Assembly (NCBI GenBank): GCA_041661265.1
Contig: JBAZUT010000004.1
Span: 63,980-127,979, forward strand
Reading direction: 5' to 3'
DNA from: Minisyncoccota bacterium
GTDB taxonomy: Bacteria; Patescibacteriota; Minisyncoccia; JAHIHE01; JAGLIN01
DNA: 64,000 bases
How positions within the stretch are numbered: position 1 is the first letter of the stretch; every line of letters begins with the position of its first letter. The notes under the pieces were generated by a model. That model did not search any database and was not told the origin of the DNA. It saw only the letters and a program-made list of their open reading frames with translations. Made by a program: the position numbers and the translations under genes. Below are positions 13,822-49,216 of this stretch, piece after piece.

Positions 13822-15615
13822 ATGAAAGTTGACGATCAACAGCTGAAAATATTTCTTATAGACACAAACCTTATTACTAAGGAAGATTTGGAAATTGCTC
13901 TGACCGAATCGAGGGATACGGGGACAAGTCTTGAGGATGTTGTTTTGAAGAAAAATCTGGTAACCGAGGAACAGCTGAACAAGCTCAAGGCTTATATCCT
14001 TGGGATACCTTATGTTGATCTGAAGAAAAGCGAAGTGGATCCGGATATCCTGAAGATCATACCCGAACAGGTCGCAAGGCAATATAATGCTGTTGCATTC
14101 GATAAACAGGGCAACCAACTGAAGGTTGCCATGACCGACCCGAATGATCTGCAATTCTTGGATTTTATAAGCAAAAAAACGAGCTATGAAATAATTCCCT
14201 GTCTGACGGACAGCGAGAGTATCAAAAAAGCGCTGAAACTTTTTCAGAAAAGCCTCAAAGCGGAATTCGGAGCCCTTGTGCAGGAAGTCGGTATCAAAGA
14301 GGGCGCGGAAGGAGAACCGCTGGTCATAAAGGCTGAGGGAGAGGCTGAAGGAGAAGGTATTGACCTGAAGAAGGCGGCGGAAGACCTTCCTGTCGTGAAG
14401 ATCGTAGATACGCTTCTGAAGCATGCGATCTTGCAGGGTGCAAGCGATATTCATATAGAACCTGAGGAGAATGATCTGGTTGTGAGATATAGGATCGACG
14501 GAGTTCTCCACGACGCCATGACGCTTCCCAAGATGGCTTTTGCGGGAATTGCGGCAAGGATAAAAGTCCTTTCGAATTTGAAGATAGACGAACACCGGCT
14601 TCCTCAGGACGGAAGATTTAAAGTTGAAACGAGCGATTACAGGGTGGCGTTCCGTGTTTCCATAATCCCTGTTTTTGACGGAGAGAAAATAGTTATGAGG
14701 CTTCTTGATGAATCGAGCGACAGAGTGCTGACCCTGGAGCAGATGGGTTTCAGAAAAAGAGATTTCGAAGTGGTGAAAAGGGGGGTGGAAAAACCAAATG
14801 GAATGATCCTTGTCGTAGGTCCGACAGGATCCGGAAAAACCACGACTCTGTATACGATCCTTGGAATGTTGAACACGCCGGATGTGAACATCAGCACGCT
14901 TGAGGATCCGATCGAATATAGGATGGCAAGAGTGAATCAATCCCAGATCAACGCCAAGATAAATTTCACTTTCGCGGCAGGCCTCCGGTCGCTACTCCGC
15001 CAGGATCCGGACATTATAATGGTGGGAGAGATCCGAGACAGGGAAACCGCCGAGCTTGCAGTTCATGCGGCCCTTACAGGACATCTCGTCCTTTCAACTC
15101 TCCATACCAGCAGCGCCGCGGGAACGCTTCCCCGGCTCACGGACATGGGAGTTGAATCGTTCATGCTCGCTTCGACCGCGAATATCATAGCATCCCAAAG
15201 GCTTGTGCGAAGAGTATGCCAGGACTGCAAGGGAGAGTTCAATATAGACAATGAGACATATGAAAGCTATTCCAAGTCTTTTGATACGGACCAGATCGCA
15301 GAATTATTAAAAAAGGAAAAGATCGTCAGCGGAAGCTTCAAGAACAACAAGGATCTGTGGCTTAGTATCAAATTTCAGAAGGGCAAGGGGTGCAACAAAT
15401 GCCGAAATGAGGGATATAGGGGAAGGGCCGGAATATATGAAGTTCTGGAAATAACCGAAAAAATAACCAAGCTTATCAATACGAATGCCACAAGCGACGA
15501 CATTGAGAATGAATCCAGAAAAGAAGGAATGACCACAATGATGGAAGACGGGCTGATCAAGGCTGTTATGGGAGTGACGACCATTGAAGAGGTTATGAGG
15601 GTTACGACGGAATAG
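13822..15615 (+). CDS. pilB: Type IV pilus assembly ATPase PilB (GspE family) with an N-terminal GSPII_E_N domain.
   Basis: 597 aa. Walker A GPTGSGKTTT, Asp box, His box, tetra-Cys motif CQDCK...CNKCRNEGYRGR and the N-terminal MshE/GspE-N-like region. Confidence 0.92.
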   Translation: MKVDDQQLKIFLIDTNLITKEDLEIALTESRDTGTSLEDVVLKKNLVTEEQLNKLKAYILGIPYVDLKKSEVDPDILKIIPEQVARQYNAVAFDKQGNQLKVAMTDPNDLQFLDFISKKTSYEIIPCLTDSESIKKALKLFQKSLKAEFGALVQEVGIKEGAEGEPLVIKAEGEAEGEGIDLKKAAEDLPVVKIVDTLLKHAILQGASDIHIEPEENDLVVRYRIDGVLHDAMTLPKMAFAGIAARIKVLSNLKIDEHRLPQDGRFKVETSDYRVAFRVSIIPVFDGEKIVMRLLDESSDRVLTLEQMGFRKRDFEVVKRGVEKPNGMILVVGPTGSGKTTTLYTILGMLNTPDVNISTLEDPIEYRMARVNQSQINAKINFTFAAGLRSLLRQDPDIIMVGEIRDRETAELAVHAALTGHLVLSTLHTSSAAGTLPRLTDMGVESFMLASTANIIASQRLVRRVCQDCKGEFNIDNETYESYSKSFDTDQIAELLKKEKIVSGSFKNNKDLWLSIKFQKGKGCNKCRNEGYRGRAGIYEVLEITEKITKLINTNATSDDIENESRKEGMTTMMEDGLIKAVMGVTTIEEVMRVTTE

Positions 15616-15729
15616 ATAAGCTTATCAGTTTGCAGCTTCTCGGCTATTTGAAGTATGGAGAAGCTCCGAGATGGAATGTTCGGATATATTTTTTATGAGT
15701 TAAACAGCTAAAAAGCTAAGAAGCTAATC

Positions 15730-16944
15730 ATGTCTCTATTATCCTACAAGGCGCGAACGATCAAGGGGGAGACGAAAAGCGGAAAATTGGTCGCAAAAGA
15801 CAAAAACGAACTGGCAAAAATGCTTCGGGCTCAGAATCTGATCCTGGTTTCAGTTGACGAAGAAAATAAGGGAGCCGGCATGCAGATCAAAATGCCTCAC
15901 TTCTTTCGGCGCGTCAAAGCAATGGACAGGATGCTTTTCACGAGGCATCTCGGGATCATGTTGAAGGCCGGACTTTCGTTTTCAAGGGCGCTGACTGTGC
16001 TTTCCGAGCAGACCGGAAATGCATATTTCAAAGAAGTGCTGGAAAAAGTGCAGGATGATGTGCAAAAAGGGAGCCAGCTCGGAGAGAGCCTTGAAAAACA
16101 TCCCAAAGCTTTTGATGAGCTTTTTGTGAACATGATAAAAGTCGGGGAAACCGGAGGCAACCTCGAAGAAGTTTTGGATCTTCTCTATGTTCAGATCAAG
16201 AAGAGCAATGAATTGACCTCAAGAGTGAAGGGCGCCATGATGTATCCGGCCGTGATCATATTCGCGATGTCCGTGGTGGGAGCTCTCATGATGACATTCG
16301 TTCTTCCTTCGATACTTTCGATCTTCCGCGATATGGATGTGCCGCTCCCGCTTCCGACCAAGATATTGATATTCATAAGCGATACCATTCAGAAGCACGG
16401 AGTATTGCTTCTTATCGGAATAATCGCTTTTTTCTCAATATTAATCTCGATTATCAGGACTCCAAGAGGAAAGAAGGGATTTGATTATATATTGCTCCGT
16501 TTGCCGACGATAAAAACGATAATAATGAAAATAAACATGGCCCGTTTCTGCAGGACGCTGAGTTCCATGATCGCCAGCGGTGTTTCGATCGTAAAGGCGC
16601 TTGAGATCGTTTCCAGAATATTGGGCAACACCTATTATAGGGAGGCTGTAGGCAAAGCTTCCGCCAGCGTTCAGAAGGGCACGACATTGAGCGAATTCTT
16701 TACGCAATATCCAAAACTATTCCATCCGATGATGGTTCATATGGTTGAAGTGGGAGAGGAGACAGGTACTCTCGAAGAAACCTTGAAGCAGGTTGCGGAG
16801 TTCTATGAAGAGGATGTAGAGCAGGTTACGGAGAATATGTCGGCTATAATAGAACCGATCCTTATGCTTGTGATAGGTGCCGCGGTCGGAGTTTTCGCGG
16901 TTGCGATCATTCAGCCGATGTATGGAATAATGGGGAAGATGTAG
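15730..16944 (+). CDS. pilC: Type IV pilus inner-membrane platform protein PilC (GspF family).
   Basis: 404 aa. Two T2SF repeats (each with GxxLxxAL, ExG/ETG and a GETGG-like motif) and three TM segments. Confidence 0.9.
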   Translation: MSLLSYKARTIKGETKSGKLVAKDKNELAKMLRAQNLILVSVDEENKGAGMQIKMPHFFRRVKAMDRMLFTRHLGIMLKAGLSFSRALTVLSEQTGNAYFKEVLEKVQDDVQKGSQLGESLEKHPKAFDELFVNMIKVGETGGNLEEVLDLLYVQIKKSNELTSRVKGAMMYPAVIIFAMSVVGALMMTFVLPSILSIFRDMDVPLPLPTKILIFISDTIQKHGVLLLIGIIAFFSILISIIRTPRGKKGFDYILLRLPTIKTIIMKINMARFCRTLSSMIASGVSIVKALEIVSRILGNTYYREAVGKASASVQKGTTLSEFFTQYPKLFHPMMVHMVEVGEETGTLEETLKQVAEFYEEDVEQVTENMSAIIEPILMLVIGAAVGVFAVAIIQPMYGIMGKM

Positions 16945-17049
16945 TGGAATAGTATAAAGTATTCAGTATTAAGTATAAAGCTAAATACTAAATACCAAAT
17001 TTCCAGATCAAGAGATAAAAAATTTAATTATATTTATCGCAATATTATC

Positions 17050-17937
17050 ATGTCTTACAGTTCAGTTAAATATAACCGTGGGTTCACATTGATCGAGTTG
17101 ATGATCACAATTGCGATCTTTTCGATAATTATAGGAGTTATGTTGCAACAGGGACGATCCATGAACACGACAGTGGAACTTGAGAATGCAAGCAGAAATA
17201 TAGATCTCAAAATAAAAACAGCAAAATCGAGGTCTATAGGCGCACTGAACAACACCAGCTATGGCGTGCATTTTGAAGCGTCCAAGGTCGTGATCTTCGA
17301 CGGATCGGGGTTGTATGTGGATGGAGCCGCATCGAACGAGGAGTTTATCTTGCCGACGGGCGTCGAGATTTACAGTATCAGCCTTGCGGGAGGCGGGACC
17401 GGATCGGATATTTTTTTTGAAAGACTTACGGGAAATACGGTTAATTTCGGAAGTGTTGTTCTGAGATCCGTCAGGGACACGACGAGGATGAAGACTATAT
17501 TCATAAATTCCAACGGACAGGACAGTTTTTCTTCTTTCAATATAAGCTCGGGGCCTGCCATAGCGAATGCGAGACACACTCATTTCAATCTAAACTGGGA
17601 TATAGGAAGTTCTTCGCAATTGATCTTGAAGTGGTATGACCTATCCAACAATCTGATACTGACCAAATCGATCAGTACGTCGGCATATTTCAATGCAGAT
17701 AAGTCAAGATTCAACTGGGAAAGTACGATAAGCGAAAGCGGAATAGATCAGACAATAACAATAAACAGCTGGCTGGACGCAAGCAATTATACAGTGCTTG
17801 ATGTCATAAGGCATAACACCGAGGCAGATAAGCTTGAAATATATTTTGATACGGAAAAAATCGCTACATATGCCAATATCGGAGGGGTGATAACCATTAC
17901 ACCCGGATCCAGCGTCATTTCGACAAATGAACTATGA
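17050..17937 (+). CDS. Prepilin-type protein (type IV pilin or minor pilin, class III signal peptide).
   Basis: N-terminal KYNRG|FTLIELMITIAIFSII with G-1 and Glu+5; 295 aa. Confidence 0.85.
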   Translation: MSYSSVKYNRGFTLIELMITIAIFSIIIGVMLQQGRSMNTTVELENASRNIDLKIKTAKSRSIGALNNTSYGVHFEASKVVIFDGSGLYVDGAASNEEFILPTGVEIYSISLAGGGTGSDIFFERLTGNTVNFGSVVLRSVRDTTRMKTIFINSNGQDSFSSFNISSGPAIANARHTHFNLNWDIGSSSQLILKWYDLSNNLILTKSISTSAYFNADKSRFNWESTISESGIDQTITINSWLDASNYTVLDVIRHNTEADKLEIYFDTEKIATYANIGGVITITPGSSVISTNEL

Positions 17938-17957
17938 TCGGAAATAATATCATATAA

Positions 17958-18467
17958 ATGAACAGCAATCAGCCAAATGGATATGGAATTATTGAAATAT
18001 TGGTCGCTTCGACCATAGGAGTGATCTTGTTTTTGAGCGTGAACGGTTTTCTGACCCTGTCGTTGAAAATGGCGATCGATGATATGCATAAGGTGGAAGC
18101 GATGAATCTCGTAAGGGCCACGCTTGAAGAGGCGAGGGCGGCGAGAGATGAGGATCAATCTACGCCCACTGTCGATCCCAAGCTCGGCTGGAATAATATC
18201 TATGCATTGACCCGGGATACGGCATATTATTTTGCGCAAAGCGGCACGGGACCCTATACATGGGGATCTGTTTCGGGTGCTCAGACAGTCGGCAGATATA
18301 CTGTCTGGTTCACGGTTTCGGATGTTACGAGAGCGAGCGATGGCGATATCGTAACCGGGGGGACGCTTGATCCCGGAACCGTAAAAATCACATCATATGT
18401 CAACTGGACATCATCTCGGGGTGCAGAGGAAATAAGTCTTTATGAATATCTTACAGACATAAAATAA
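17958..18467 (+). CDS. Minor pilin-like protein (PilV/PilW-like, non-canonical prepilin N-terminus).
   Basis: N-terminal NG|YGIIEILVASTIGVILFL, with Glu+5 if cleaved after the first Gly. 169 aa, between two pilin genes. Confidence 0.65.
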   Translation: MNSNQPNGYGIIEILVASTIGVILFLSVNGFLTLSLKMAIDDMHKVEAMNLVRATLEEARAARDEDQSTPTVDPKLGWNNIYALTRDTAYYFAQSGTGPYTWGSVSGAQTVGRYTVWFTVSDVTRASDGDIVTGGTLDPGTVKITSYVNWTSSRGAEEISLYEYLTDIK

Positions 18468-18473
18468 ACGATC

Positions 18474-19028
18474 ATGGCCGGAATAAAGGAAAACGATCCA
18501 ACACGAAAAAAAAACAGCTCGGGATTCACGCTTATCGAGATGGTTATTTATGTCGCTCTTTTCGGAATAATCATGGGGATGATATTCAACATGATATTGT
18601 TTGTCTATGGAATGAACAAAAGAATAACTTCCTATTCGAGCGTGACGGCGGACGCGCATTCGGCAATGGAGCGTATTGTATATGAAGTCACGAATTCCAA
18701 ATATTTCTATCTTCCTACCAGTAATTTCACTAATTATAATTATATTGCCGGAAAAAGCGGACAGCTTTCGATCGCAACGGAAAAATATGCCACTGTGGAC
18801 GACAGCATATCGTTCATGGATTTTTATGTTGAAGGCGGGACGCTTTTCTTGAATATGGACGGGTTTGATCCGGTGCCATTGACTTCGAGCAATGTCACAG
18901 TGTTCGATTTTGATCTCGATTATTTCAAAAATGGCCAGCGCGAATCGGTGAGGATCAGCCTCAAGGCGCGATCAGCGTCAGAGCCTACGATCATGATAGA
19001 TCTCATAAATACGGCTACTATAAGATAA
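18474..19028 (+). CDS. Prepilin-type minor pilin.
   Basis: NSSG|[16 protein letters not shown] with Glu+5; 184 aa. Confidence 0.85.
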
Positions 19029-19032
19029 AAAA

Positions 19033-21093
19033 ATGGGTCCGATAAAAATAGAAAACGACAATAGAGGTTATATCGCGCTGATCACGGTCGCTCTCATGAC
19101 GGGACTTATTTTGATCATTGTCATGGCTTTGACGAACATCGTGATCTCCAAAAGAAATATAAGCAAAAATATCGTATTTTCCGCACAATCTTTTTATTCT
19201 GCGGAATCCGGGCTGGAAGACGCTATATATAGGGAAATGACGCCCTATGATTCGCCTTCAGGTACGCTGACCCTGGACGGGGCTTCTATTGATCAGACCA
19301 GAAATTCGAGTGGTGATACGATCACGATCGAGTCTATTTCCGATTTTTCAAACAACACAAGAAAAATGACGGCAAAGCTCAAGGTTGCCGTTACGACAAA
19401 TGTTAAATTTCGCTATGGCGTGCAGGTGGGTGCGGGCGGATTGTTCATGCATCAAGGTTCCACTATCACGGGTAACTTGTATTCTGATGGCTCCGTGGAA
19501 AAGGGAAGCGGAAGCGCAGCCACGATCACCGGAGATGTTTTCGTCGCCACGGGCATAGAGTTGGACGGATCAGCAGGTAATTGGACTGGACAGACAACTG
19601 ACAAGAATTTTGGACTTAAACAACCTCCTAACACAGAAACCACTGATATCGCAATGCGCTATGTTCCCGAATTTCCTCCGGTGGCGATCTCAGGCGGCGG
19701 GGGATCGGGTGCCAAGGCTACTGCAATTGTCAGCGGAGGTGCGATAGCGTCGATTACTATCACCGCAGGCGGTACAGGATACACATCCCCTCCTGTGATA
19801 TCGATCGGCGGCGGATCGGGAGCGGTTTTTTCCGCTCCGACCATAAGCGGAGGTGCTTTGCAAAATGATATTACAGTCAGTGCGGGCGGAAGCGGATATA
19901 GTTCAACCAGCGGAAATTTATCGCAAGTTTCTTTCTATTTGAAAAGGACGAATACCGAACCGACCGACGGAATGATATATGTCACAGAGGATAATGGCAG
20001 CGGTTCTCCCATGACATCAGCGATCTCAGGCGGCAGTACGCAACTTATAGCTGAGAATATCGGTACCAGTTATAGCTGGGTCAGTTACAGCTTTGCCACG
20101 CCGCCGCTCCTGACAGCTGGATCTACTTATTGGATCGTGATAGATGCGCCTTCTTCAAGTTCGGCTACTAAATATTATTCTGTCGGAAGGTCGGCTGCCA
20201 ATTCGGATATTTCCAAATATAGCGCTCCAAATTGGACCAGTCCCTCCTGGACAACTGATACGGGCCAGGGATATGCATATAAAGCGTGGATCGGAGGGAA
20301 TCCGACTCATATTGATGGCATAACTGTGGGCGGAAACGCTAAAGCCAACACGATACTTAATAGTATTATCGCGGGAGACGCTTATTATAAAACGATAGAT
20401 GACGATACTACGGTCCGTGGATCCCAGTGCCTTAATGCATATTGCCATCCTGGCAGCGAGGATCCTCCTTTTGAAGCCTTGCCTGTTTCTGATGGTAATA
20501 TTACCGATTGGAAAGCGGATGCTTTGGCAGGAGGAACTTTTTCCGATGCGGCTCATTGCAATCCATCTGATGGCGCTGTGATTGGTCCGGCGGTTCTGGA
20601 TTGCGACCTTGTAATTTCTACGGGAAATACTGTGACTTTGGGTGGTACGATCTGGGTGAAGGGTAATATCACCTTCGATGGCAATTTGCAGCTGGATGGC
20701 GGATATGGGACGAAGAGCGGGCTTGTAATTGCCGATTCCACAGATCCTGCCAAGGGAATGATAGATGTCAGCGGTTATGTCTGCGGTTCGCAGGGATATA
20801 ATGGTTCAAATTGCGGCACCTCCAATGATACATATATCATGATGCTGTCAACTCATCCGGGAACCGCCGATAATGCAATTTATGGAGGCGCTCATAGCGA
20901 CGCTTCCGTATATTATGCTACCAATGGCAAGGTAACGATCAAAAATCAGGGTGATGTAAAAGAGGTGACCGGCTACATGCTGGAAATATTACAGAATGCC
21001 AACGTTAGCTATCAGACCGGACTCGCTAATGCCGATTTTACTTCCGGTCCCGGTGGAGGGTGGAGCATAAGCGGATGGAACGAAATTGAATAA
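19033..21093 (+). CDS. Large PilX_N-domain pilus-associated protein (candidate tip or minor pilin with C-terminal extension and Gly-rich repeats).
   Basis: N-terminal hydrophobic anchor plus [17 protein letters not shown] (PilX N-terminal-like motif, compare 35359..35778). Internal about 27-aa repeats [23 protein letters not shown] / [23 protein letters not shown]. 686 aa. Confidence 0.7.
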
Positions 21094-21330
21094 TGTGTTA
21101 TAATAATATTGTATCTGTGAGAAGAAATATGTATCAATAGATTATCGAATTGAGCTGAGGGTAAACTATTGTTACATAATTCAAAAATCAAAAAAGTTGA
21201 TTTTAGAGATTTTTAAATTTTGAATTGTAATTTTGAATTTTTAGTTTTGCATCTTTAATTTTCGCCGCAGACCAGCATTGAACCGCTGTATGCTTGATTT
21301 CGTAATGCGATGATAATTACACTAGAATAA

Positions 21331-22401
21331 ATGATCATGTCAATCTTCAACGACAACATAGCGGCTTTTGGAATGGATCTCAGCGACAGATCCGTCAAGG
21401 TGGCCCAGCTTGGCAAAAAGAACGGGAAAGTGCATCTTTTGTCTTTCGCGCGCAAAGATATTCCCAAGGGGTGGATCGAAGATGGGGAAATAAAGAAAGA
21501 GGATGAGGTTATTGACCTCGTCAAGAAGACCATGAGGGAGGCGAAACCGAGATCTATCAGTTCAAAATACGTGGTTTATTCGATTCCCGAAACAAAAGGA
21601 TTTATCAGGGTGATCAAGATTCCAAAGATAGAAGGAGATAATCTGGAGGAGGCTGTGAAATATGAAGCGGAGCAGTTATTTCCGATTGATATCAGCGAGT
21701 CGTATATCGATTGGCAGGTTCTGTCCGGAGAGGATGGTAAGGTCCTTGAGGTGCTGGTTGCCGCGGTTCCGATGAAGCTGGTGGATTCATATTCTTCGAT
21801 GCTGAGAAAAGCGGGTCTGATGCCGATCACTGCAGAGATCGAGTCTATAGCTATTTCCAGAAGCTTGATAAACGACAGACAGTCGGCGAGGCCGATATTG
21901 ATAATCGATCTTGGCAAGGACAGGACAAGCTTCATAATCTATAAGAATCCTACGGTACAATTCACTGCCAGTATTCCGGTATGCGGGAATGAATTCAATA
22001 AAGCCATATCTGAAACGCTGAACATGAGCGATAATGATGCGGAGGTGTTGAAAAGAAAGTGCGGCCTCAGCGCCAAAGGGGAATGCAAAGATCTGTATAG
22101 GGCGATACAGCCGTCTCTTCATGAAATGATCAAATATATAAACAAACTTTCGGATTATTACAAAGAGCATTACAAGGAAGAGTCAGATATCGCCAAAGTG
22201 ATCATATGCGGCGGAGAGGCGAGGATCCTGGGCATAAGTTCTTTTTTGTCGCTCCGGATAAAAAAAGAAGTGGAAAAGGGAAATCCGTGGGTGAATATAG
22301 TCTTATCTTCGGAAAAAGAGATCCCTCCGATCTCCAGGAACGATTCGCTCATTTTTGTTACGGTGTTGGGTCTTGCAATCAGAGGCATAAGCGAATCATA
22401 A
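21331..22401 (+). CDS. pilM: Type IV pilus assembly protein PilM (actin-like ATPase fold).
   Basis: 356 aa. FGMDLSDRSVKVAQL N-terminal acetate/sugar-kinase-like fold, ...IIDLGKDRTSFII..., C-terminal VIICGGEA. Confidence 0.88.
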   Translation: MIMSIFNDNIAAFGMDLSDRSVKVAQLGKKNGKVHLLSFARKDIPKGWIEDGEIKKEDEVIDLVKKTMREAKPRSISSKYVVYSIPETKGFIRVIKIPKIEGDNLEEAVKYEAEQLFPIDISESYIDWQVLSGEDGKVLEVLVAAVPMKLVDSYSSMLRKAGLMPITAEIESIAISRSLINDRQSARPILIIDLGKDRTSFIIYKNPTVQFTASIPVCGNEFNKAISETLNMSDNDAEVLKRKCGLSAKGECKDLYRAIQPSLHEMIKYINKLSDYYKEHYKEESDIAKVIICGGEARILGISSFLSLRIKKEVEKGNPWVNIVLSSEKEIPPISRNDSLIFVTVLGLAIRGISES

Positions 22402-22417
22402 ACATGATAATCGGAAT

Positions 22418-23053: not shown

Positions 23054-23060
23054 ATATTTT

Positions 23061-23615: not shown

Positions 23616-23623
23616 GAACAAAT

Positions 23624-24088: not shown

Positions 24089-24166
24089 TACGACAGTGCC
24101 ATCCGATCAAATTATCATTGACTTTGAAATGATTTCCTGCTAGCATTCAAAGGAGATTATTTTTAT

Positions 24167-24441: not shown

Positions 24442-24453
24442 GATTTTAGGGAC

Positions 24454-24482: not shown

Positions 24483-24509
24483 TATCACATAAGCTGCTAT
24501 TCATCAAAG

Positions 24510-41588: not shown

Positions 41589-42543
41589 GATAATCTCTTA
41601 TATAGGCGTAAGTTTTTTCTGAAACATCTTCCATTTTTTCCATGGCCATCTTTTCATTGTTGTCTCTTATCATTATGGTCAGCAAGTATGGCCTGTTTTT
41701 AAAATATATCAGTCCGGAATCCAAATAAATTTCTTTTTCCCGATCTATGCCGATTTTATGCGAAAAAATGATATCTTGGGGCAGTGCGCTTTGGATATAA
41801 TCTTTAAACGGCGATTGAGACAGGAAGTTAAGCAGTTTTTGCGAATTCTCGTCGGATAAATAGGAGGAATTATACAGCGTTCTAAAAATAACCGAATATC
41901 TTTTGGCGCTAAGATTGCCGTTCGTAGAGAGAAAACCTTTCAATCCCATGTGCTCATACACATCGTCGATTTCCTCCGTTTCCAAATTCCTAACCAGGAT
42001 AAAGTGTGCCGTGTTGTCAGAATCGGCAAGAGAACGTCTTACGAGTTCTTCTATGGTGAATGTCGATCCGGTAGATTCTTTGTGCAATGATCCGAATTTA
42101 TCATCCCTATCCGAAGACATGAGCACCAGCTTGTTGGTCCATTTCCATTCGCCTTTTTCTATTTTTTTTGCAACGGCCATAGCCGCTGGAACTTTCAGTA
42201 AGCTTGCCGGATAGAATTCGGCGTCTTTGTTTGTTGCGATACTGGCACCTGTCGGCAAATACTCAAAATAGATCGAAACATTCAAATCTTTTTTATATTT
42301 TTCGTCTAAGTATTCGCGGAGCGGCTGTACATTGATTATCAAGTCTTGTTTATCAATTAGTTTCCTGGCGGGATCAAGAAATTCGAATTTTCCGCTCGCA
42401 GACTCTTTCGAAATATTCGTTTCATCCGGCGCATAAACGAAAAATGTCCACAAGTTTGTTATCGTCAAAATCGCCGTCAAAATCCCTAATGCGATTACAG
42501 TTATATTTTTATCATTGTTTTTCTTGTTCCCGATTTCTTTCAT
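41572..42543 (-). CDS. Membrane-anchored class-A beta-lactamase-fold serine hydrolase (penicillin-binding-protein-like).
   Basis: N-terminal TM. SxxK (ASLLK), SDN (DSDNTA) and KxG (HKIG) motifs in the correct order and spacing for class A / PBP-like enzymes. Overlaps the adhesin gene by 17 nt. Confidence 0.65.
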   Translation of the reverse strand: MKEIGNKKNNDKNITVIALGILTAILTITNLWTFFVYAPDETNISKESASGKFEFLDPARKLIDKQDLIINVQPLREYLDEKYKKDLNVSIYFEYLPTGASIATNKDAEFYPASLLKVPAAMAVAKKIEKGEWKWTNKLVLMSSDRDDKFGSLHKESTGSTFTIEELVRRSLADSDNTAHFILVRNLETEEIDDVYEHMGLKGFLSTNGNLSAKRYSVIFRTLYNSSYLSDENSQKLLNFLSQSPFKDYIQSALPQDIIFSHKIGIDREKEIYLDSGLIYFKNRPYLLTIMIRDNNEKMAMEKMEDVSEKTYAYIRDYHEENN

Positions 42544-42558
42544 AAAATATATAATTAA

Positions 42559-43146
42559 CTAAATTTCCGCATTAACCGTATGGCTGCCTTTTGGAAAGAA
42601 GATCGTCCAGATGAATTTTTTAGCTCCAGCATCATAATGCATCGATAGGCTTGTGATCTCAGGATTTTCCGGATAAGTCGAGAAGAATGTTTTTGCGACA
42701 AGCGTAGAATCCACAAATTCTCCTTTCAGTGTCTGAAGAGCTTTCACCGATTCTTTTTCTTCTCCGCCCCGCGATTCTCCGTCTTTAACGACGATCTCAT
42801 AGAGCATGTTCTTCGCCTGTGAATAGAAAACGAATTTCCAGCCATTGGACTTTCCTTCGGCCGTGAACTTTTTGGAAAAAAGGGTGATCTCGGAAAGATA
42901 TGAATCTTCTGACCAGGCCAGGGCATCCTGATCTGCAAGCCGCAGAGCTTCTTTCGCCGTAAGGTCGGCCTGAACTGTTTCTCGTTCGATCAATTTATTG
43001 TCATTTTTTTCAGAAGGAACATCGTTTTGCAGATTGATGGTCTTTGTTCCGGATAGGGGTCCTGGTTTCAGCGTATAGCCAAGCGCAAGACCCGTGAGGA
43101 ATGCGAGGATGATCGCAAGACCTGATAAAGCTTTACCATATTTCAT
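42559..43146 (-). CDS. Membrane-anchored or lipoprotein-like hypothetical protein.
   Basis: 195 aa; N-terminal hydrophobic segment ALSGLAIILAFLTGLALG then a soluble domain. Inside T4P operon 2. Confidence 0.55.
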   Translation of the reverse strand: MKYGKALSGLAIILAFLTGLALGYTLKPGPLSGTKTINLQNDVPSEKNDNKLIERETVQADLTAKEALRLADQDALAWSEDSYLSEITLFSKKFTAEGKSNGWKFVFYSQAKNMLYEIVVKDGESRGGEEKESVKALQTLKGEFVDSTLVAKTFFSTYPENPEITSLSMHYDAGAKKFIWTIFFPKGSHTVNAEI

Positions 43147-43164
43147 ATTCTTTTTATTAGAAGG

Positions 43165-43878
43165 TTATTTAAATTTCAGCGAGCCCGCACCGGTGTCCAG
43201 TTTACCGCTGCCATTATCCAGGTCGCTATAGGAATCCCATCCATTCTCATTTGCGGGGTTATCCAATCCTGCGGTGCAAACGGACAATGCGGCGTTCCAT
43301 GTTCCCGAAAGCGCCTCGCATCCGGCCTGATCGGCGGGAGCGGGGGATCCCCAGCCGTCCTGTTTCATTATCCTGTTCTTCCATCGTGTGACATATTGTT
43401 CCAGAATAGCGTCTTTCCCGTCGGCATAGGATATTACTATCTTTATTTTCTGCGTTGACGGATCTTCGGACCCGGATGATATCGAGATGTTTCCGTTGTC
43501 GCGATTGACGTTGTCGATGATTATCTTTCTCGTATAGACCTTGTTGTTAAGCGTGATATCGCAATCGGACGCGACGTCGGTGAGCAGCCAGGAGGATGCG
43601 TCATTCTTCAAGCAATAAACGAAACTTTCGCCCTTGTTGTTCTTGCTGCCGTTTCCGTCCGGAGGAAGATAAATGCTGTGCCAGGAGCTTTCGCTTATGG
43701 ATTTGACAGCTTCCATGCCTTCTTGGGCGAGCATCAACGCATCAAATCTGCTTTCCGTGAACTTTCCTTCTTTCATGTTCACGAAAAAGAGGTTTGAGAC
43801 CGCGATCACGATAATCGCAACCACCATTATGGCAACGAGCATTTCTATTAAAAGCTGGCCTTTTGAATTTAATTTCAC
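43165..43878 (-). CDS. Prepilin-type minor pilin.
   Basis: NSKG|QLLIEMLVAIMVVAII with Glu+5; 237 aa. Confidence 0.8.
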   Translation of the reverse strand: MKLNSKGQLLIEMLVAIMVVAIIVIAVSNLFFVNMKEGKFTESRFDALMLAQEGMEAVKSISESSWHSIYLPPDGNGSKNNKGESFVYCLKNDASSWLLTDVASDCDITLNNKVYTRKIIIDNVNRDNGNISISSGSEDPSTQKIKIVISYADGKDAILEQYVTRWKNRIMKQDGWGSPAPADQAGCEALSGTWNAALSVCTAGLDNPANENGWDSYSDLDNGSGKLDTGAGSLKFK

Positions 43879-43902
43879 TTTATTTCCTGAATTATCTCTG
43901 AT

Positions 43903-44388
43903 TTAAGGCATGCCGACAAATCCGGAAGTTCTTATGGATATATCTATATACAAGCTGGTATCTGCGAAGTCCTCTATCCTGATAGTGCAGTCGCGCGTTG
44001 TTTCTGCATTGGGCCGCGAGAAAATGATCTCATTACATCCGCCCAAAAGCGAATCGGCATTGATCTTCAGGGTGTTCGGCAGATAATCTTCCTTGACCGT
44101 GGTTTTTGTCGTGCCGTCATCGCTGAACGTCGAGATCTTGCCGCTTGCCGCATCAAATGAAACTCCCCAATTCTTTGCTTCGTTTCCGCTTAGGGCTTTC
44201 GCCTGAGCGCTCCGGAGCAAGCTGATGATTATCCTTGAAGAAGAATCGAGGTCTGCCGATTTTTTATACCCTCCCAGCCAGAGCGAAATTCCGGAAGCAA
44301 AAACAGCAAGGATGGCGATCGATATCAGAAGCTCGATCAGGCTGAAACCATGCTCAGTATCAAGTATCAAGTATTTTGTATTTAGCAT
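43903..44388 (-). CDS. Prepilin-type pilin.
   Basis: DTEHG|FSLIELLISIAILAV with Glu+5; 161 aa. The leader peptide is encoded by a 9-bp tandem repeat (see 44355..44443). Confidence 0.85.
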   Translation of the reverse strand: MLNTKYLILDTEHGFSLIELLISIAILAVFASGISLWLGGYKKSADLDSSSRIIISLLRSAQAKALSGNEAKNWGVSFDAASGKISTFSDDGTTKTTVKEDYLPNTLKINADSLLGGCNEIIFSRPNAETTRDCTIRIEDFADTSLYIDISIRTSGFVGMP

Positions 44389-44443
44389 TAATATATGGAA
44401 TCAAACAGTTAGTATCTAGTATCCAGTATCTGGCATCTAGTAT
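44355..44443. repeat. ATACT(T/A)GAT-type periodic repeats (9-nt period) spanning the 5' UTR and leader-peptide codons of the pilin gene 43903..44388.
   Basis: Within the CDS (- strand sense): atacttgat atacttgat actgag encodes KYLILDTE; upstream (sense) tatactagat gccagatactg gatactagat actaa. Plus-strand coordinates 44355-44374 and 44410-44443. Confidence 0.7.
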
Positions 44444-44487
44444 AAATTCTAATACCATATATCACATACCATATACTATGTACCGAT

Positions 44488-45699
44488 TCATCCCACCGTC
44501 CCGACGATCTGATATATGGGAACGATGATCGAGAACGCGATGCCTCCGACGATCAGCCCCATCACAAGGATGAGCAGAGGTTCTATCAGGGAGATGACAT
44601 TCTTGAGTCCGTTATCAACTTCTTCCTCATAAAAAGCGGCAAGATCTTTCAGGACCGAATCCAGTTTTCCGGTTTTTTCTCCCACTGAAACCATGTTTAT
44701 CACGAGGTAGGGGAAATCCTTCTTTCTTCTTCGCAGTGACATTCCCAGCGATGATCCCTGGCTGATCTCGGTGTTGATCTCCTTGAAGTCGTTGCGATAT
44801 CGGTTGTATCCGAGGACTTCGCTTGATATGTCAATGGCCTTGAGGATGCTGACTCCGCTTGAAAGAAGGATCCCCAATGTCCGCGTGAATCTCGCCAGCA
44901 CTATTTTCCTATAAAGGTCCGAAACGACGGGCGTCCTCAGCATCAGCGATGAACTGAAAAACTGGAATGAAGGCCGGTTCTTGACAAGCATGAATGTTGC
45001 AACGGATGCAATAAGCGCAATTATGATGACAAGGATATTCTTTCCCAGAAAATCGCTGACGCTCATTATGAATTTTGTGCTCCATGGAAGATTCAGGTTG
45101 TTCTGAAAAAAGACCTTGGTCAGCCGGGGGATCACAAGGACCATGAGGATCGTTATGACGCCGAGGGATGCCAGAACAAGGATCGCCGGATATATCATCG
45201 CATTTTTAACCTTCTGCCTCATCTTATAATCCTTTTCGATCTGGATCCCGAGATAATCAAGAGATCTTTCCAAGGTTCCGGACACTTCTCCGGATTCGAG
45301 GATCGCGATGAATACTTTTGAAAAGAAATTCGGATATTTTTTGAAAGTATAGGACAGCGGCTGTCCTTTTTCCAGGTTTGATTTCGCTTCAGTGAGGATC
45401 CTGATGAGGATCTTTTTTCTTGCGTCATTAAGAAGTGTGTCCAGCCCTTCCTTTAGGCTGAGGCCGGCTTTGATTATTATGGAAAGATGTTTCGTGAGCA
45501 TGAGCTTGTCGACTGCAGACGGCGCCGAATGACCAAAAAGCGAAAGCCTTCCCATGGGATTCTGCTTTTCTTTTATGGAGACGACCGTCAGATTCTGACG
45601 GTTGAGATAGCCGAGGGCGATATCCTTGTTCTGAGCCTCTGTCTCCCCGTTGGTTATCTTTCCCTTGCTGTTTACCGCGGTATATATGAATGTGGACAT
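44488..45699 (-). CDS. pilC: Type IV pilus platform protein PilC (GspF family), second copy.
   Basis: 403 aa; two T2SF repeats, three TM; same architecture as 15730..16944. Confidence 0.9.
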   Translation of the reverse strand: MSTFIYTAVNSKGKITNGETEAQNKDIALGYLNRQNLTVVSIKEKQNPMGRLSLFGHSAPSAVDKLMLTKHLSIIIKAGLSLKEGLDTLLNDARKKILIRILTEAKSNLEKGQPLSYTFKKYPNFFSKVFIAILESGEVSGTLERSLDYLGIQIEKDYKMRQKVKNAMIYPAILVLASLGVITILMVLVIPRLTKVFFQNNLNLPWSTKFIMSVSDFLGKNILVIIIALIASVATFMLVKNRPSFQFFSSSLMLRTPVVSDLYRKIVLARFTRTLGILLSSGVSILKAIDISSEVLGYNRYRNDFKEINTEISQGSSLGMSLRRRKKDFPYLVINMVSVGEKTGKLDSVLKDLAAFYEEEVDNGLKNVISLIEPLLILVMGLIVGGIAFSIIVPIYQIVGTVG

Positions 45700-45936
45700 T
45701 GAAGTAAATTCAAAAATAAAAAATCAAAATGTAAAATGACAGATCAAAATGATAAAAGTTTGCATTTAATAACTGATGACCGGGAAACAAACGCCAAACA
45801 AGTTTCAATCACCGAATGAACAAAGTACGAGCATCTGATTATTACTCGCCTGCAGGCAGACAGATATTTTGATGTTTGGATATTTTAAGCTTTGCATTTT
45901 CACTTTGATTTTTGATATTTAAATTTTACATTATCA

Positions 45937-47637
45937 TCACTCCCTTATCACCCTCAATATCTCCGAAATGGTAGTGAGCCCTTTCTGCACTTTCTCAAGT
46001 CCGTCCTCGAACATAGGGACCATGCCTTCTTTTTCCGCGGTATCCCTGATCTCGCTTCCCTGGGCTTTTCTCAGGATCAGCTTTTTTATTTCGCTCGTGA
46101 TGTTCAAGAATTCAAATATGCCGATCCTTCCGCGATACCCGCTTTTTCCGCAGATCTCGCAGCCATTCGCGCTGTATATAGTGTCGAAGGTGCCTATATT
46201 GAACTTGGAGTGCGGATTCTGAGACAGCTGGCTCTTGATGATCTCAAGCGTTTCGGCGTCGATCTTTCCGCTCGAAAGGCATTTGGTGCAGTTCTTCCTG
46301 ACCAGCCTTTGCGCTATGACAAGGTTCAGCGTGGAAGCGAGAAGGAACGGTTCAGCTCCCATGTCGATCATTCGGGGGATCGCAAGAGACGCGCTGTTCG
46401 TGTGGAGGGTTGCAAGGACGAGGTGTCCCGTGAGCGAGGCCTGGATCGCCATATTAAGTGTTTCTTTATCCCTTATCTCTCCGACCATGATGATGTTCGG
46501 GTCCTGGCGGAGGAATGACCGGAGTCCGTCCGCAAAAGTGATGCCGGTCTTTTTGTTGACCTGCGTCTGGTTTATCCTGGCTATGTCGTATTCGATCGGA
46601 TCTTCAATGGTGCAGATGTTGACCTCCTGTTTGTTCAATATGTGCAATATGGAATAAAGAGTGGTTGTTTTTCCGCTTCCGGTGGGGCCTGTCACGAGGA
46701 TCATTCCCTGAGTTTTCATGATGTTCGCATAAAGCGATTCATGGCAGTTCTCGGATAGTCCCAGTTCGGCGAAGCTGACGGGTCCGAGGGATCCTGAAAG
46801 TATCCTGAGCACGGCTTTTTCTCCATGGAATGTCGGCATGATGGAAACTCTGACCGAAATATCCCTGTCTTGAGATCTGAATTTGAACCGGCCGTCCTGG
46901 GGCGCTCTGTGTTCATCGATCTGCAGGTTCGAAAGGATCTTGATCCTTGCGATAAGGGCGGAATGAACGATGGCGGGAAGTTCCGTGATGTCATGCAAAA
47001 TGCCGTCGATCCTGAATCTCACAACGACCTTGTTCGCAAATATCTCAAAGTGGATGTCGGACGCGTTGCCATAGGCCGCATAGTCCAGGATCGTGTCCAT
47101 GATGGAAATGATCGGGATCTCCTGGGCGATCTTTGCGGGATCATCCTGGCTCGTTTTTGCTTTTTCGATGTTGCTTTCGATTATATCATAGAATTCCTTT
47201 CCGATATCGCGCTTGTAGTTTTTCATCGCCTTTTTCAGCTTTTCTTTTCCGGCAATATATATTTTGACCGGCATGCCAGTCGTTATTTTCACATATTCTA
47301 TGGTTTCAAGGTCCAGGGGATCCTGCATGGCAATCTTCAGGAATCCTTTTTCTTCCCCGAATGCGATGAGCTGTTTTTTTTGGGCCATGCTTTCGCTTAT
47401 TCTGGAAAGTACCTTCGAATCGATCTTTTCTTTGGAGGGATCGGCTTCGGGAACATCAAGATATTCCGAAAGAAGTTCGGTGAGATAGTTTTCGGTCAGC
47501 ATGTTGCCGCCGATGAGCACATCCGCTATCGATTCTCCGGACCGGATGGACTCTTCTTTCGCTTTTGCAAAATCGGATCCGTCGATAATTCCGGAATCCA
47601 GGATTATTTTTTCCAATGTTTTTTCGGGGAGAAGCAT
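45937..47637 (-). CDS. pilB: Type IV pilus assembly ATPase PilB (GspE family), second copy.
   Basis: 566 aa; Walker A GPTGSGKTTT, tetra-Cys CTKC...CEICGKSGYRGR, N-terminal GSPII_E_N-like domain. Confidence 0.92.
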   Translation of the reverse strand: MLLPEKTLEKIILDSGIIDGSDFAKAKEESIRSGESIADVLIGGNMLTENYLTELLSEYLDVPEADPSKEKIDSKVLSRISESMAQKKQLIAFGEEKGFLKIAMQDPLDLETIEYVKITTGMPVKIYIAGKEKLKKAMKNYKRDIGKEFYDIIESNIEKAKTSQDDPAKIAQEIPIISIMDTILDYAAYGNASDIHFEIFANKVVVRFRIDGILHDITELPAIVHSALIARIKILSNLQIDEHRAPQDGRFKFRSQDRDISVRVSIMPTFHGEKAVLRILSGSLGPVSFAELGLSENCHESLYANIMKTQGMILVTGPTGSGKTTTLYSILHILNKQEVNICTIEDPIEYDIARINQTQVNKKTGITFADGLRSFLRQDPNIIMVGEIRDKETLNMAIQASLTGHLVLATLHTNSASLAIPRMIDMGAEPFLLASTLNLVIAQRLVRKNCTKCLSSGKIDAETLEIIKSQLSQNPHSKFNIGTFDTIYSANGCEICGKSGYRGRIGIFEFLNITSEIKKLILRKAQGSEIRDTAEKEGMVPMFEDGLEKVQKGLTTISEILRVIRE

Positions 47638-47639
47638 GG

Positions 47640-47735
47640 GCGAAAGTCAAAAGTTAATAGTCCAAAGTCAAAAGTCGTAAGTTTAAAACCAAAAGTCAAA
47701 AGCTTAAAGTCTAAATCAAAATCAAAATTATAGAA
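47640..47735 (+). repeat. (A)AAAGTC / AAAGTT heptamer-type oligomer array between the membrane-protein gene and pilB-2.
   Basis: gcgAAAGTCaAAAGTTaatAGTCcAAAGTCaAAAGTCgtAAGTTtaaaaccAAAAGTCaAAAGCTtAAAGTCtaaatcaaaatcaaaa; same unit as the 5' part of the composite repeat (copies A, B, D). Confidence 0.75.
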
Positions 47736-47738
47736 TCA

Positions 47739-48344
47739 TTATGATACCAGCTTCAGCTTGTCGAGGCCCAGTCTGTCGCCGAAATATAGCGAGAGGGAAA
47801 GGACGGTGATGGCCGCTATGATCATATATGGCGCGATGGGTATGAGCTCTCTTTTTTGAAGTGCGTAATAATTGAAAATTTGCTTTATGACCAGAAGCCC
47901 GAAAACGGCAAAGACATAGATGATAAAATTCGGCCAGCCGGCGATGAGCGCCGTGAGAAAACCCAGATAAACTTCCTTTTCATCCAGGAAGCGTCTGTTC
48001 GAATATTTGCAAAGCAGCATGAGATAGAAAGCCCAGGCGAGAGCTATTGCGACGTCAAGGACATAGGGGAGCCAGAAGCGATATATTGCATAGTTATAGA
48101 AATAGTCGATCGAGCGGAAAGGGGGGAGGATAAATTGGCTCAAGGGATCTTTTTCCCAGACCTGGAATTGGATCGACGTCGAAAAGCACGCGGTCATAAT
48201 AAAAACAGACATCAAAAATAGGATGCCGAATTTAACAAAGCCCGCGCTGACCCTTTTGTTTTTCACATAATCGTATAGCAGCAAAAACATCCATAGGAAG
48301 GATATTGCAAGCTCGGATATTTTTAATGCAGGAAGAATTTGCAC
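47739..48344 (-). CDS. Polytopic membrane protein (about 6 TM) between the major pilin gene and pilB; possible A24-like prepilin peptidase, very tentative.
   Basis: 201 aa; GTG start. Position (pilA, this gene, pilB, pilC) is where pilD often sits and there are Asp residues in predicted membrane segments (YVLDVAIALAW; YFGDRLG), but the canonical A24 motifs are not clearly recognisable. Confidence 0.5.
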   Translation of the reverse strand: MQILPALKISELAISFLWMFLLLYDYVKNKRVSAGFVKFGILFLMSVFIMTACFSTSIQFQVWEKDPLSQFILPPFRSIDYFYNYAIYRFWLPYVLDVAIALAWAFYLMLLCKYSNRRFLDEKEVYLGFLTALIAGWPNFIIYVFAVFGLLVIKQIFNYYALQKRELIPIAPYMIIAAITVLSLSLYFGDRLGLDKLKLVS

Positions 48345-48399
48345 AGTGTTTTGTTTAGAATATTTTTGTGAAGAATTTGTTTTTGTTTTGCTCGGCGAG

Positions 48400-48442
48400 C
48401 CTAAAGCTTAGTTTTAGGATAATCCTAAAACTAAGCTTTAGG
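48400..48442. repeat. Perfect 19-bp inverted repeat with a 5-nt loop (CCTAAAGCTTAGTTTTAGG ataat CCTAAAACTAAGCTTTAGG), copy 2.
   Basis: Identical arms to 9434-9476. Lies between the major pilin gene (about 100 nt downstream of its stop) and the GTG start of 47739..48344 (56 nt upstream). Confidence 0.85.
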
Positions 48443-48500
48443 GCACAAGGCGCTGAAGATTTAATTTGCTTTAAGACCCATCGATCTAGCAGCCATTATG

Positions 48501-48526
48501 GATAGATCGTTTTTTAACGATCTATC
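48501..48526 (-). other. Perfect 9-bp stem-loop (GATAGATCG-ttttttaa-CGATCTATC) 16 nt downstream of the major pilin stop codon; candidate attenuator, terminator or mRNA-stabilising hairpin.
   Basis: Read directly. No clear U-tract on the pilin-sense strand, so the terminator assignment is uncertain. An overlapping second imperfect hairpin (CGATCTA...TAGATCG) lies at 48484-48510. Confidence 0.35.
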
Positions 48527-48541
48527 GAAATGAGTGCTAAC

Positions 48542-49216
48542 TTAGAAATCTGTTCCTCCACCCAAAATTGTCAGACTAGTTCCGGTTTCGTATAAATCCG
48601 GGTTATTGCCGCCGTCCGATACTGCCTTCGCACCGAATTCGGTGCTTTCGAGTTTGGCATCTATCTCATAAGTTAAGCTATCTCCGCAAGCATATCTATA
48701 AACAAGGTCTGAATTGGCCACGCCTGCAGCAGTAACTGTATTGACCGGGTCAACTGGAAAATTCGATATTGGAGAGCCTCCCGCTAGACTGCTTATATTA
48801 ACGGGAATCCATCCATTTCCGGTCGTAAGCCCGATATTTGCTGCGGTTACCTGACCAGCGCCAGCTGTTCCTGTGAAAGTGGTTCCATCCAGTATCATAT
48901 CCGAAATATCGGTGGTATCGCTTGGAACGCTGTAATATATCTTACCACTGGATTCTTCTCCTACCCAGGTTGCTCCCACTTTGCAGGAACCATTGCTTCC
49001 CATGTCCATGGCAGGGGTCGTACTATTTGTAAGATATAGTCCGATGGCTGTTTTAACTGTTGAAAGATCGGTCATCCTTTGAGTGTCCCTGCTTTTCTTC
49101 ATCGTTTCTGCCGGATTTAGCACCAGGATCAGGGCCATAGCCAAGATTGATAGTATTGCAATGACTATCAAAAGTTCCAGAAGCGTAAATCCTTTTAATT
49201 GTTCTTGTTTAGTCAC
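48542..49216 (-). CDS. pilA: Type IV major pilin (PilA-like).
   Basis: EQLKG|FTLLELLIVIAILSILA with Glu+5, conserved pilin alpha1 helix, 224 aa; first gene of operon 2, followed by a strong hairpin. Confidence 0.85.
   Translation of the reverse strand: MTKQEQLKGFTLLELLIVIAILSILAMALILVLNPAETMKKSRDTQRMTDLSTVKTAIGLYLTNSTTPAMDMGSNGSCKVGATWVGEESSGKIYYSVPSDTTDISDMILDGTTFTGTAGAGQVTAANIGLTTGNGWIPVNISSLAGGSPISNFPVDPVNTVTAAGVANSDLVYRYACGDSLTYEIDAKLESTEFGAKAVSDGGNNPDLYETGTSLTILGGGTDF

Follow-up and report, generated by a model that had tools for sequence, protein, structure and literature searches.

The window analysed here, a 64-kb stretch (64,000 nucleotides, G+C ~42%) of contig JBAZUT010000004.1 from the Minisyncoccota bacterium assembly GCA_041661265.1, the MAG (metagenome-assembled genome) of an ultrasmall, uncultured member of the Patescibacteria ('Candidatus Paceibacterota'), contains two type IV pilus (T4P) gene sets, cluster 1 on the + strand (13822-24088) and cluster 2 on the - strand (33106-49216). 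A first-pass annotation made from the sequence alone had reported two oppositely oriented sets about 10 kb apart, and both were found intact at these coordinates, with every open reading frame (ORF) full length and no frameshift in either cluster; the gap between them measures 9.0 kb (24089-33105) and holds a block of signalling genes. In this study, we compared the two sets with each other, with their counterparts in related genomes and with known pilus systems, and we weigh whether they build two different filaments.

The two gene sets and their relationship

Both clusters encode the core of a type IVa pilus (T4aP) machine (Table 1). The two extension ATPases, PilB1 and PilB2, each combine T2SSE and MshEN domains and retain the Walker A, Walker B, His box and CxxC...CxxC motifs in an alignment, and the PilC/GspF-type platform proteins of both clusters have two T2SSF domains. 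Among NCBIfam models, PilB1 scored 583 bits against type_IV_pilB, 520 against GspE and 256 against ComGA, and PilB2 scored 536.1 bits against PilB versus 538.5 against GspE; PilB and GspE were the best models for both ATPases, yet with scores below their equivalog cut-offs. Both PilBs reached only ~255 bits with ComGA and ~50-54 bits with the TadA-type model, and the PilCs 156-164 bits with ComGB versus 327-344 with GspF. The closest solved relatives of both PilBs in the PDB are Thermus PilF and the Geobacter and Myxococcus PilBs, with GspE farther away. On these comparisons both PilBs are of the T4aP PilB/PilF type, and neither of the ComGA nor of the Tad type. Three other kinds of system did not match the gene content of the window: a Com pilus of the ComGA-GG type (low ComGA and ComGB scores, and a 224-aa PilA that is not ComGC-like), a Tad/Flp pilus (low TadA-type score) and a type II secretion system (T2SS), of which there are only GspE/F-like and pseudopilin-like parts, with PilM/N/O in place of GspL/M and neither GspD nor GspC. 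Some database records name orthologues of PilB1 'TadA', a name that the model scores contradict.

The two machines are well diverged from each other, as PilB1 and PilB2 are 43% identical, PilC1 and PilC2 34%, and the PilM proteins 26% over their N-terminal halves. A neighbour-joining tree of 46 PilBs (557 columns, 100 bootstraps) placed the two ATPases in separate Patescibacteria clades, with bootstrap values of 100 for the PilB1 (B1) clade, 100 for a tight PilB2 clade and 85 for a broad PilB2 (B2) clade; a locus labelled Saccharibacteria groups within B1. B1 and B2 together form a group (bootstrap 99) that leaves out outgroups from beyond the Candidate Phyla Radiation (CPR) as well as the PilT-linked PilBs of Patescibacteria, which come from loci such as L011, L017 and L019 (L numbers denote related loci throughout), where an ORF of ~355-360 aa with PilB-like ATPase similarity, read as PilT, lies between PilB and PilC. 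This grouping indicates that the PilB duplication is old and internal to Patescibacteria, among which there are at least three PilB lineages. That the clusters are redundant recent duplicates, or that one of them is decaying, is scarcely credible and is refuted by the low identities, the full-length ORFs, the orthologous operons in other MAGs and the separate clades. The PilB phylogeny that the first-pass annotation had proposed thus supports two lineages, and neither the pseudogenes nor the near-identical copies for which it had allowed were found. PilB clusters of the Patescibacteria type are also present on several contigs in GTDB (L002, L004, L006, L019, L021-L023, L025) that bear the titles 'uncultured Bdellovibrionales' or 'uncultured Pseudomonadales'; their PilBs nest among Patescibacteria sequences and the titles look wrong.

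The PilM-PilN-PilO subcomplex of T4aP is also represented twice, with PilM clear in both clusters and the PilO-like protein of cluster 1 as its weakest member. PilN and PilO of cluster 1 had no Pfam or NCBIfam match, even at permissive E-values. In an hhalign comparison, the family of the 211-aa protein nevertheless aligned at 98% probability (E=6e-14) with the PilN-like domain of the fusion found in cluster 2, and the orthologue of this fusion in L157 has a weak Pfam PilN match. The order PilM1, PilN-like, PilO-like and small bitopic protein is repeated in L159. We rejected homology between the proteins that follow PilO in the two clusters (154 and 73 aa), as BLASTP similarity between them was nil.

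A motif scan of all six frames identified seven Glu+5 prepilins in the window, fewer than the eight or more of the first-pass annotation, which had correctly assigned three to cluster 1. Pfam N_methyl matched two of these three (295, 169 and 184 aa) and supports the cluster 2 prepilins at 43165-44388. Overlapping phmmer matches among the ORFs of related loci pair the 295-aa protein with that of 161 aa (both also match the GspH model weakly), the PilV/GspI-like proteins of 169 and 237 aa, and those of 184 and 193 aa, and the 686-aa protein of cluster 1 matches the L153 orthologue of the 139-aa protein of cluster 2 (5e-07). The order GspH-I-J-K, or FimU-PilV-W-X, is established for priming complexes, and GspK-type members without Glu+5 are known. 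From weak homology and position, each cluster seems to have one four-member pilin set in GspH/I/J/K-like order; the PilX/GspK-likeness of the 686-aa and 139-aa proteins lies only in their position, an N-terminal hydrophobic segment without Glu+5 and their mutual homology. Because the cluster 1 genes correspond to a four-member priming set whose fourth member, like GspK, is without Glu+5, cluster 1 has only minor-type pilins. As annotated before, the sole major-type pilin in the 64-kb window, with a G↓F/MxxxE signal, is the PilA of cluster 2. Its gene has a promoter-like site at 49273-49245 and two hairpins downstream. Two nearly identical copies of a perfect palindrome of 44 nt, with a 20-bp stem, lie 39 kb apart at 9433-9476 and 48399-48442, one copy downstream of pilA and the other just upstream of a Wzy/TPR gene; they resemble a repeated hairpin or terminator-type element.

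The 686-aa protein had no match in a Pfam search. Its extracellular region is rich in Gly/Ser/Thr (43.7% Gly, Ala, Ser and Thr, GAST) and homologues hold the equivalent position in L010, L020, L096 and L159; we consider it a candidate tip adhesin. No secretin domain (PilQ), com gene, or Pfam or NCBIfam match to an A24 prepilin peptidase was found in the window. The PilQ result was expected, since PilQ is reported to be absent from CPR genomes (PMC6744442).

Table 1. Pilus, signalling and neighbouring features in the window, in order of coordinates
Feature	Coordinates	Strand	Basis or remark
Histidine kinase	12155-13132	+	Pfam HisKA/HATPase_c; directly upstream of pilB1 with regulator gene between
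Single-domain response regulator	13210-13590	+	Pfam Response_reg; between kinase gene and pilB1
PilB1, T4aP-type extension ATPase, 597 aa	13822-15615	+	T2SSE 2-370/370, 438 bits; MshEN
PilC1 platform protein, 404 aa	15730-16944	+	Two T2SSF domains; GspF/PilC NCBIfam models
GspH/FimU-like Glu+5 prepilin, 295 aa	17050-17937	+	G↓xxxxE motif; weak GspH model match
PilV/GspI-like Glu+5 prepilin, 169 aa	17958-18467	+	G↓xxxxE motif
PilW/GspJ-like Glu+5 prepilin, 184 aa	18474-19028	+	G↓xxxxE motif
PilX/GspK-like pilin-like protein, 686 aa	19033-21093	+	N-terminal hydrophobic segment without Glu+5
PilM1	21331-22401	+	PilM_2 1-339/340, full length
PilN-like bitopic protein, 211 aa	22418-23053	+	hhalign to PilN-like domain of cluster 2 fusion
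PilO-like bitopic protein, 185 aa	23058-23615 (start could be 22974)	+	hhalign to PilO2
Small bitopic protein, 154 aa	23624-24088	+	Last gene of cluster 1
tRNA-Arg	24167-24239		Rfam; 3' of cluster 1
Signalling block: HAMP, FIST, histidine kinase, response regulator, two multi-transmembrane proteins, double-receiver protein	24471-31543	+	Pfam; between clusters
Terminator-like hairpin	33088-33066	-	Follows 73-aa ORF
Transmembrane ORF, 73 aa	33106-33327	-	End of cluster 2
PilO (PilO2), 176 aa	33337-33867	-	Pfam PilO, 21.6 bits
PilM-transmembrane-PilN-like fusion, 491 aa	33871-35346	-	PilM_2 on residues 15-173
PilX/GspK-like protein without Glu+5, 139 aa	35359-35778	-	Homology to cluster 1 counterpart
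PilW/GspJ-like prepilin, 193 aa	35775-36356	-	Weak N_methyl; Glu+5 motif; homology to cluster 1 counterpart
Four extracytoplasmic proteins amid minor-pilin genes	36684-43146	-	Pfam Beta-lactamase2, TIG, Pur_ac_phosph_N; signal/anchor N-termini
 of these, 425-aa protein	36684-37961	-	
 of these, 1205-aa protein	37971-41588	-	
PilV/GspI-like prepilin, 237 aa	43165-43878	-	Glu+5 motif; weak PilV model match
GspH/FimU-like prepilin, 161 aa	43903-44388	-	Glu+5 motif; weak GspH model match
PilC2	44488-45699	-	Two T2SSF domains
PilB2	45937-47637	-	T2SSE + MshEN; NCBIfam
Membrane protein, 201 aa, ~6 helices	47739-48344	-	Predicted FlaK/GxGD-protease-like fold without conserved Asp dyad
PilA-like major pilin candidate, 224 aa	48542-49216	-	GFTLLE; N_methyl; GAST 41%
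Two single-domain response regulators	49482-49859, 49944-50321	-	Pfam; upstream of pilA
HAMP/PAS histidine kinase	50393-53017	-	Pfam; upstream of pilA
Phosphonate-bd-type binding protein	53023-53898	-	Pfam; upstream of pilA

Conservation of the clusters and their signalling genes

Orthologues of PilB1 (56-57% identity) were found in many loci labelled Moraniibacteriota or Patescibacteria, some of these labels being evidently wrong. Scans of GTDB genomes and metagenome contigs with PilB2, which need exact 8-mers, mostly gave PilB1-type orthologues as well, and PilB2 orthologues were retrieved via the protein database. The order histidine kinase, response regulator, PilB1, PilC1 is kept in L005, L013, L025 and L159, and synteny extends to PilM in L004, L005, L013 and L025; in L010 and L020 three prepilin genes are followed by the homologue of the 686-aa protein. 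Many cluster 1 orthologues are on contigs with no cluster 2 seen nearby. In L003 (7547-8605), L022 (7597-8652) and L027 (4141-5187), a recA-like gene with the RecA signature ALKF[YF]...R precedes the PilB1-type orthologue by 1.4-5 kb; two of these three loci are labelled Moraniibacteriota.

PilB2 belongs to a tight clade of ~40 protein clusters with 62-86% identity, and its operon is repeated almost gene for gene in L152 (PilB2 85% identical) and L153 (66%). Both retain the upstream binding protein, PAS kinase and two receivers, then PilA, a ~200-aa membrane protein, PilB, PilC, two prepilins, the 195-aa protein, the giant protein, a relative of the 425-aa protein, a further prepilin, the PilX-like protein, the PilM-PilN fusion and PilO. 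In L154 (PilB2 65%) the frame of cluster 2 is kept with extra signalling genes, and in the broader B2 clade, represented by L157 (Colwellbacteria) and L158 (Kerfeldbacteria), the set of PilA, ~210-aa membrane protein, PilB and PilC is retained. PilA orthologues are equivalently placed in L152-L154, L157 and L158, and a kinase and a regulator precede pilA in L154 and L158. The Kerfeldbacteria cluster (L158 7037-12923) has three 23S_rRNA_IVP (PF05635) genes interspersed, and its PilC was called as two ORFs (153 and 243 aa).

One relative retains both clusters together. In GCA_029210775.1, a PilB1 orthologue (P0349, 69% identical) and a PilB2 orthologue (P0013, 66%) are on a single 59.8-kb contig, JARGGI010000004.1, where cluster 1 followed by HAMP and FIST genes occupies 1-16782 and cluster 2 lies in the opposite orientation at ~21.4-39.2 kb. 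The HAMP and FIST genes (L159 15152-16782) stand after cluster 1 in the same order as in the window, where the HAMP protein has a Cys-rich C-terminus. This co-location suggests that the convergent two-cluster unit is inherited, not accidental. In this relative the pilus supercluster is bordered by Y1 transposase genes of the IS200/IS605 type (L159 2782-3387; L153 2902-3435), which the window does not have at the equivalent places.

Upstream of each cluster lie a histidine kinase gene of its own and one or more genes for single-domain receivers, which are CheY-like with no DNA-binding output. This arrangement would fit independent, possibly post-translational, control of each machine. Just upstream of pilB1 the intergenic sequence at 13597-13670 has a periodicity of ~8 nt ('AAGTCnAT'-like); this is one of several short intergenic repeats (13597-13670, 9255-9310, 6610-6642), which include three tandem copies of the 14-nt unit AAATGAAAAGTGAA. 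An Rfam scan of the window gave the tRNA-Arg after cluster 1 as its sole match.

Surface proteins and a FlaK-fold membrane protein in cluster 2

The adhesin-like genes and the beta-lactamase-fold gene that had been noted within cluster 2 are indeed embedded there. They encode a 195-aa anchored protein, a 323-aa class-A beta-lactamase-fold protein with both the SxxK and SDN motifs, a 1205-aa TIG/FN3-like surface protein and a 425-aa secreted protein, all four with a signal or anchor sequence at the N-terminus and with orthologues in L152 and L153. A C-terminal domain of ~145 aa in the 1205-aa protein recurs twice in the 425-aa protein and matches no Pfam family, and a sequence search of the PDB with the 1205-aa protein and the 686-aa protein of cluster 1 yielded nothing useful. 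A further candidate surface adhesin is encoded just outside cluster 2 and its kinase, at 55349-57628 (+); this protein of 759 aa carries a signal peptide and a Laminin_G_3 (ConA-like) domain, has Cys-rich modules at either end and is anchored by a transmembrane segment at its C-terminus.

The position of these genes raises the question of whether cluster 2 is a T2SS-like pseudopilus exporter, with the 1205-aa, 425-aa and beta-lactamase-fold proteins as its cargo. Secreted-protein genes are indeed conserved within the operon, and PilB2 scored equally on the GspE and PilB models. We nevertheless regard an exporter as quite improbable, as GspD, GspL and GspM are all missing and PilM/PilN/PilO are present instead, PilB2 is closer among solved structures to T4aP PilB/PilF than to GspE, and the 224-aa PilA, which has a large globular part rich in GAST residues and a gene with a promoter-like site and hairpins of its own, is what would be expected of an abundant fibre subunit. 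In addition, the Colwellbacteria locus encodes a 728-aa protein (L157 13435-15621) whose N-terminus resembles a PilV-like pilin and whose C-terminus is the Cys-rich module of the 425-aa protein. Because this module is fused there to a pilin, and may thus be physically attached to the pilus, the sequences suggest that modules of the embedded proteins are displayed on the pilus, which favours an adhesive pilus over a T2SS-like exporter.

Between pilA and pilB2 lies the gene of a 201-aa membrane protein from a large family (572 representative clusters at E<=0.001). An AlphaFold2 model from a 101-sequence alignment had a mean confidence score (pLDDT) of 95.8, and judged from this model the protein has a FlaK/GxGD-protease-like fold; a Foldseek search with it gave nothing significant, the top weak matches being presenilin chains. 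Although this is the classical neighbourhood of pilD, we rejected the protein as the missing canonical PilD. A24 peptidases have two conserved catalytic Asp residues, the second in GxGD. The protein in the window looks PilD-like and has both putative Asp residues, but close orthologues have G, K, H or S in place of Asp25; the family as a whole lacks the first catalytic Asp, which is unconserved even among orthologues with 66% identity, and of 101 members a single one was matched by the Pfam A24 model (E=4e-4). The sole conserved acidic position among 141 members is 124 (E in 81%, D in 18%), and a conserved G-W-P follows twelve residues later, which is the spacing of the D...GW in A24 enzymes. 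In comparison with PilD and FlaK (PDB 3s0x), the family is thus without the first catalytic Asp, has F-x-x-x-[E/D] in place of GxGD, and is without a methyltransferase domain.

These features make the FlaK-fold family a concrete target for study. We can envisage, as a tentative and on balance doubtful extension, that cluster 2 is an uncharacterised, Patescibacteria-specific T4P subtype, the FlaK-fold family a new pilin-handling factor and the convergent unit, with its shared signalling block, a switch between two host-interaction pili. The operon would then comprise a sensor kinase, receiver(s), PilA, the GxGD-fold membrane protein, PilB, PilC and minor pilins broken up by large surface proteins. 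If so, a FlaK-fold protein with one invariant Glu/Asp would either cleave prepilins as a non-canonical protease or, being catalytically dead, serve as a chaperone or gate for pilins.

Two proposed filaments and comparison with known pili

Patescibacteria are obligate epibionts, and T4P are the best candidates for finding and holding their hosts. To our knowledge, Patescibacteria pili have been studied experimentally only in Saccharibacteria. In one of these, Nanosynbacter lyticus TM7x, two functionally distinct T4P with different roles have been demonstrated (PMC11623550, Grossman et al.; summarised in PMC13293708). CPR genomes are enriched in components of T4P, whose genes are also co-localised there (PMC6744442). 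The best-supported reading of the window is likewise one of two distinct filaments. In its full form, which we give a probability of about 0.6, two anciently duplicated T4aP-like machines build two different filaments, or filaments with different tips, that are separately signalled. This reading is plausible because the PilB clades separate, each cluster has its own two-component system, the layout is conserved and TM7x offers a precedent. Each machine has its own PilB, PilC, PilM, PilN-like and PilO-like proteins, four pilin-like proteins, and an upstream kinase with receiver(s). The two would respond to different signals and serve different interactions with surfaces or hosts, as in TM7x. 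Cluster 1 would polymerise a major pilin encoded outside the window, or possibly the PilA of cluster 2, and prepilin cleavage and any retraction would require PilD and PilT encoded in other parts of the genome.

Several results weigh against this reading. The first-pass annotation had called both sets complete, with PilB, PilC, PilM, PilN and PilO in each and two PilX_N proteins; the assembly core stood up to our analyses, but PilT and canonical PilD were found neither in the window nor in the 10 kb beyond its right end, so that prepilin processing and retraction are putative. PilB, PilC and PilM were confirmed in each cluster and the PilN-likeness of the cluster 1 protein is supported by profile alignment, but the assignment of PilO in cluster 1 is weak (59% hhalign probability for the 185-aa family against PilO2, no Pfam match). 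The 686-aa and 139-aa proteins were unmatched by Pfam PilX_N even at E<=10. There is no major pilin of cluster 1 in the window, and cluster 1 might share PilA or be an accessory system. Finally, the layout with two clusters was seen conserved in one other MAG only.

The question of the major pilin bears directly on an alternative in which one filament is built by two machines, both polymerising PilA with alternative minor-pilin or tip complexes, such that they differ in tip specificity and regulation. The single major-pilin-like gene in 64 kb, the make-up of cluster 1 (exactly four priming-type pilins and no PilA, here and in L159) and the retention of both clusters on one contig in the relative are all in its favour. 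We consider it unlikely all the same, as the 34% identity of the PilCs suggests different pilin clients, cluster 1 orthologues often occur on contigs without cluster 2 nearby, and the major pilin of the second TM7x system is encoded at a separate locus (PMC11623550), such that absence from a cluster is not absence from the genome.

The two-filament reading had been illustrated in the first-pass annotation by a pilus for DNA uptake and another for adhesion or host attachment. Distinct filaments remain plausible given the diverged machineries and the TM7x precedent, but this division of labour found no direct support. It would most plausibly make cluster 1 the DNA-uptake (competence) pilus and the other cluster the adhesion pilus, and we consider it rather unlikely. 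Patescibacteria widely encode ComEC and T4P, for which a joint action has been proposed (PMC6744442, PMC13293708), and the recA genes upstream of PilB1-type orthologues would fit such a role. Neither ATPase is of the ComGA type, however, their PilB scores being far above those with ComGA and TadA, the window has no com genes, and large adhesin-like components are present in both clusters. Moreover, the TM7x locus with recAX encodes the second pilus, which is reported as not contributing to competence (PMC11623550).

The locus shows that a Paceibacteria lineage also retains two old, probably separately regulated pilus machines, side by side. Since two machines in one organism have already been demonstrated in TM7x, the locus adds breadth and not a new principle, and the B2-type operon with its conserved giant surface proteins is a concrete target for further studies.

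The window resembles the T4P-1/T4P-2 pair of TM7x in coming from Patescibacteria and in having two PilB/PilC/PilM/PilN/PilO sets with many poorly conserved pilins, one machinery locus without its own major pilin, large minor pilins without a PilD-type signal as candidate tip adhesins, and no secretin gene in the window. It differs in that neither cluster has PilT or canonical PilD, whereas both are next to PilB1 in TM7x locus 1 (locus 2 has recAX and no major pilin), and in its layout, with two neighbouring, convergent clusters on either side of a signalling block as opposed to the scattered loci of TM7x. The architecture of cluster 2 is not described in the sections of the TM7x report considered here. 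As the PilT-linked Patescibacteria PilBs fall outside the B1+B2 clade in our tree, which took in no TM7x sequences, the pair here is probably a different combination of PilB lineages from that in TM7x. Possibly, B1 corresponds to TM7x T4P-2, because recA adjoins PilB1-type orthologues and a locus labelled Saccharibacteria falls within the B1 clade, and B2 may be a lineage without earlier study.

The clusters share with the canonical T4aP of diderms (Pseudomonas/Myxococcus pilA-pilBCD, pilMNOPQ and fimU-pilVWXY1E) an MshEN-type PilB, PilC, PilM/N/O, four-member H/I/J/K-like minor pilins, a G↓FTLxE leader on the major pilin and a two-component system adjoining pilA. They differ from it in that PilQ, PilP, PilT and PilU are absent from the window, PilM and PilN are fused in cluster 2, the single-domain response regulators have no PilR-type output, and the position of PilD is held by a protein without the Asp dyad. 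The large extracellular modules on or among the minor pilins are reminiscent of minor pilins that are modular or act as tip adhesins, for example PilB of Streptococcus sanguinis (PMC8179133), and of tip adhesins of the PilY1 type. Unlike in those systems, the domains found here belong to no Pfam family besides the TIG/FN3-like ones, and of the four embedded proteins three are Sec-type proteins in their own right and not pilins.

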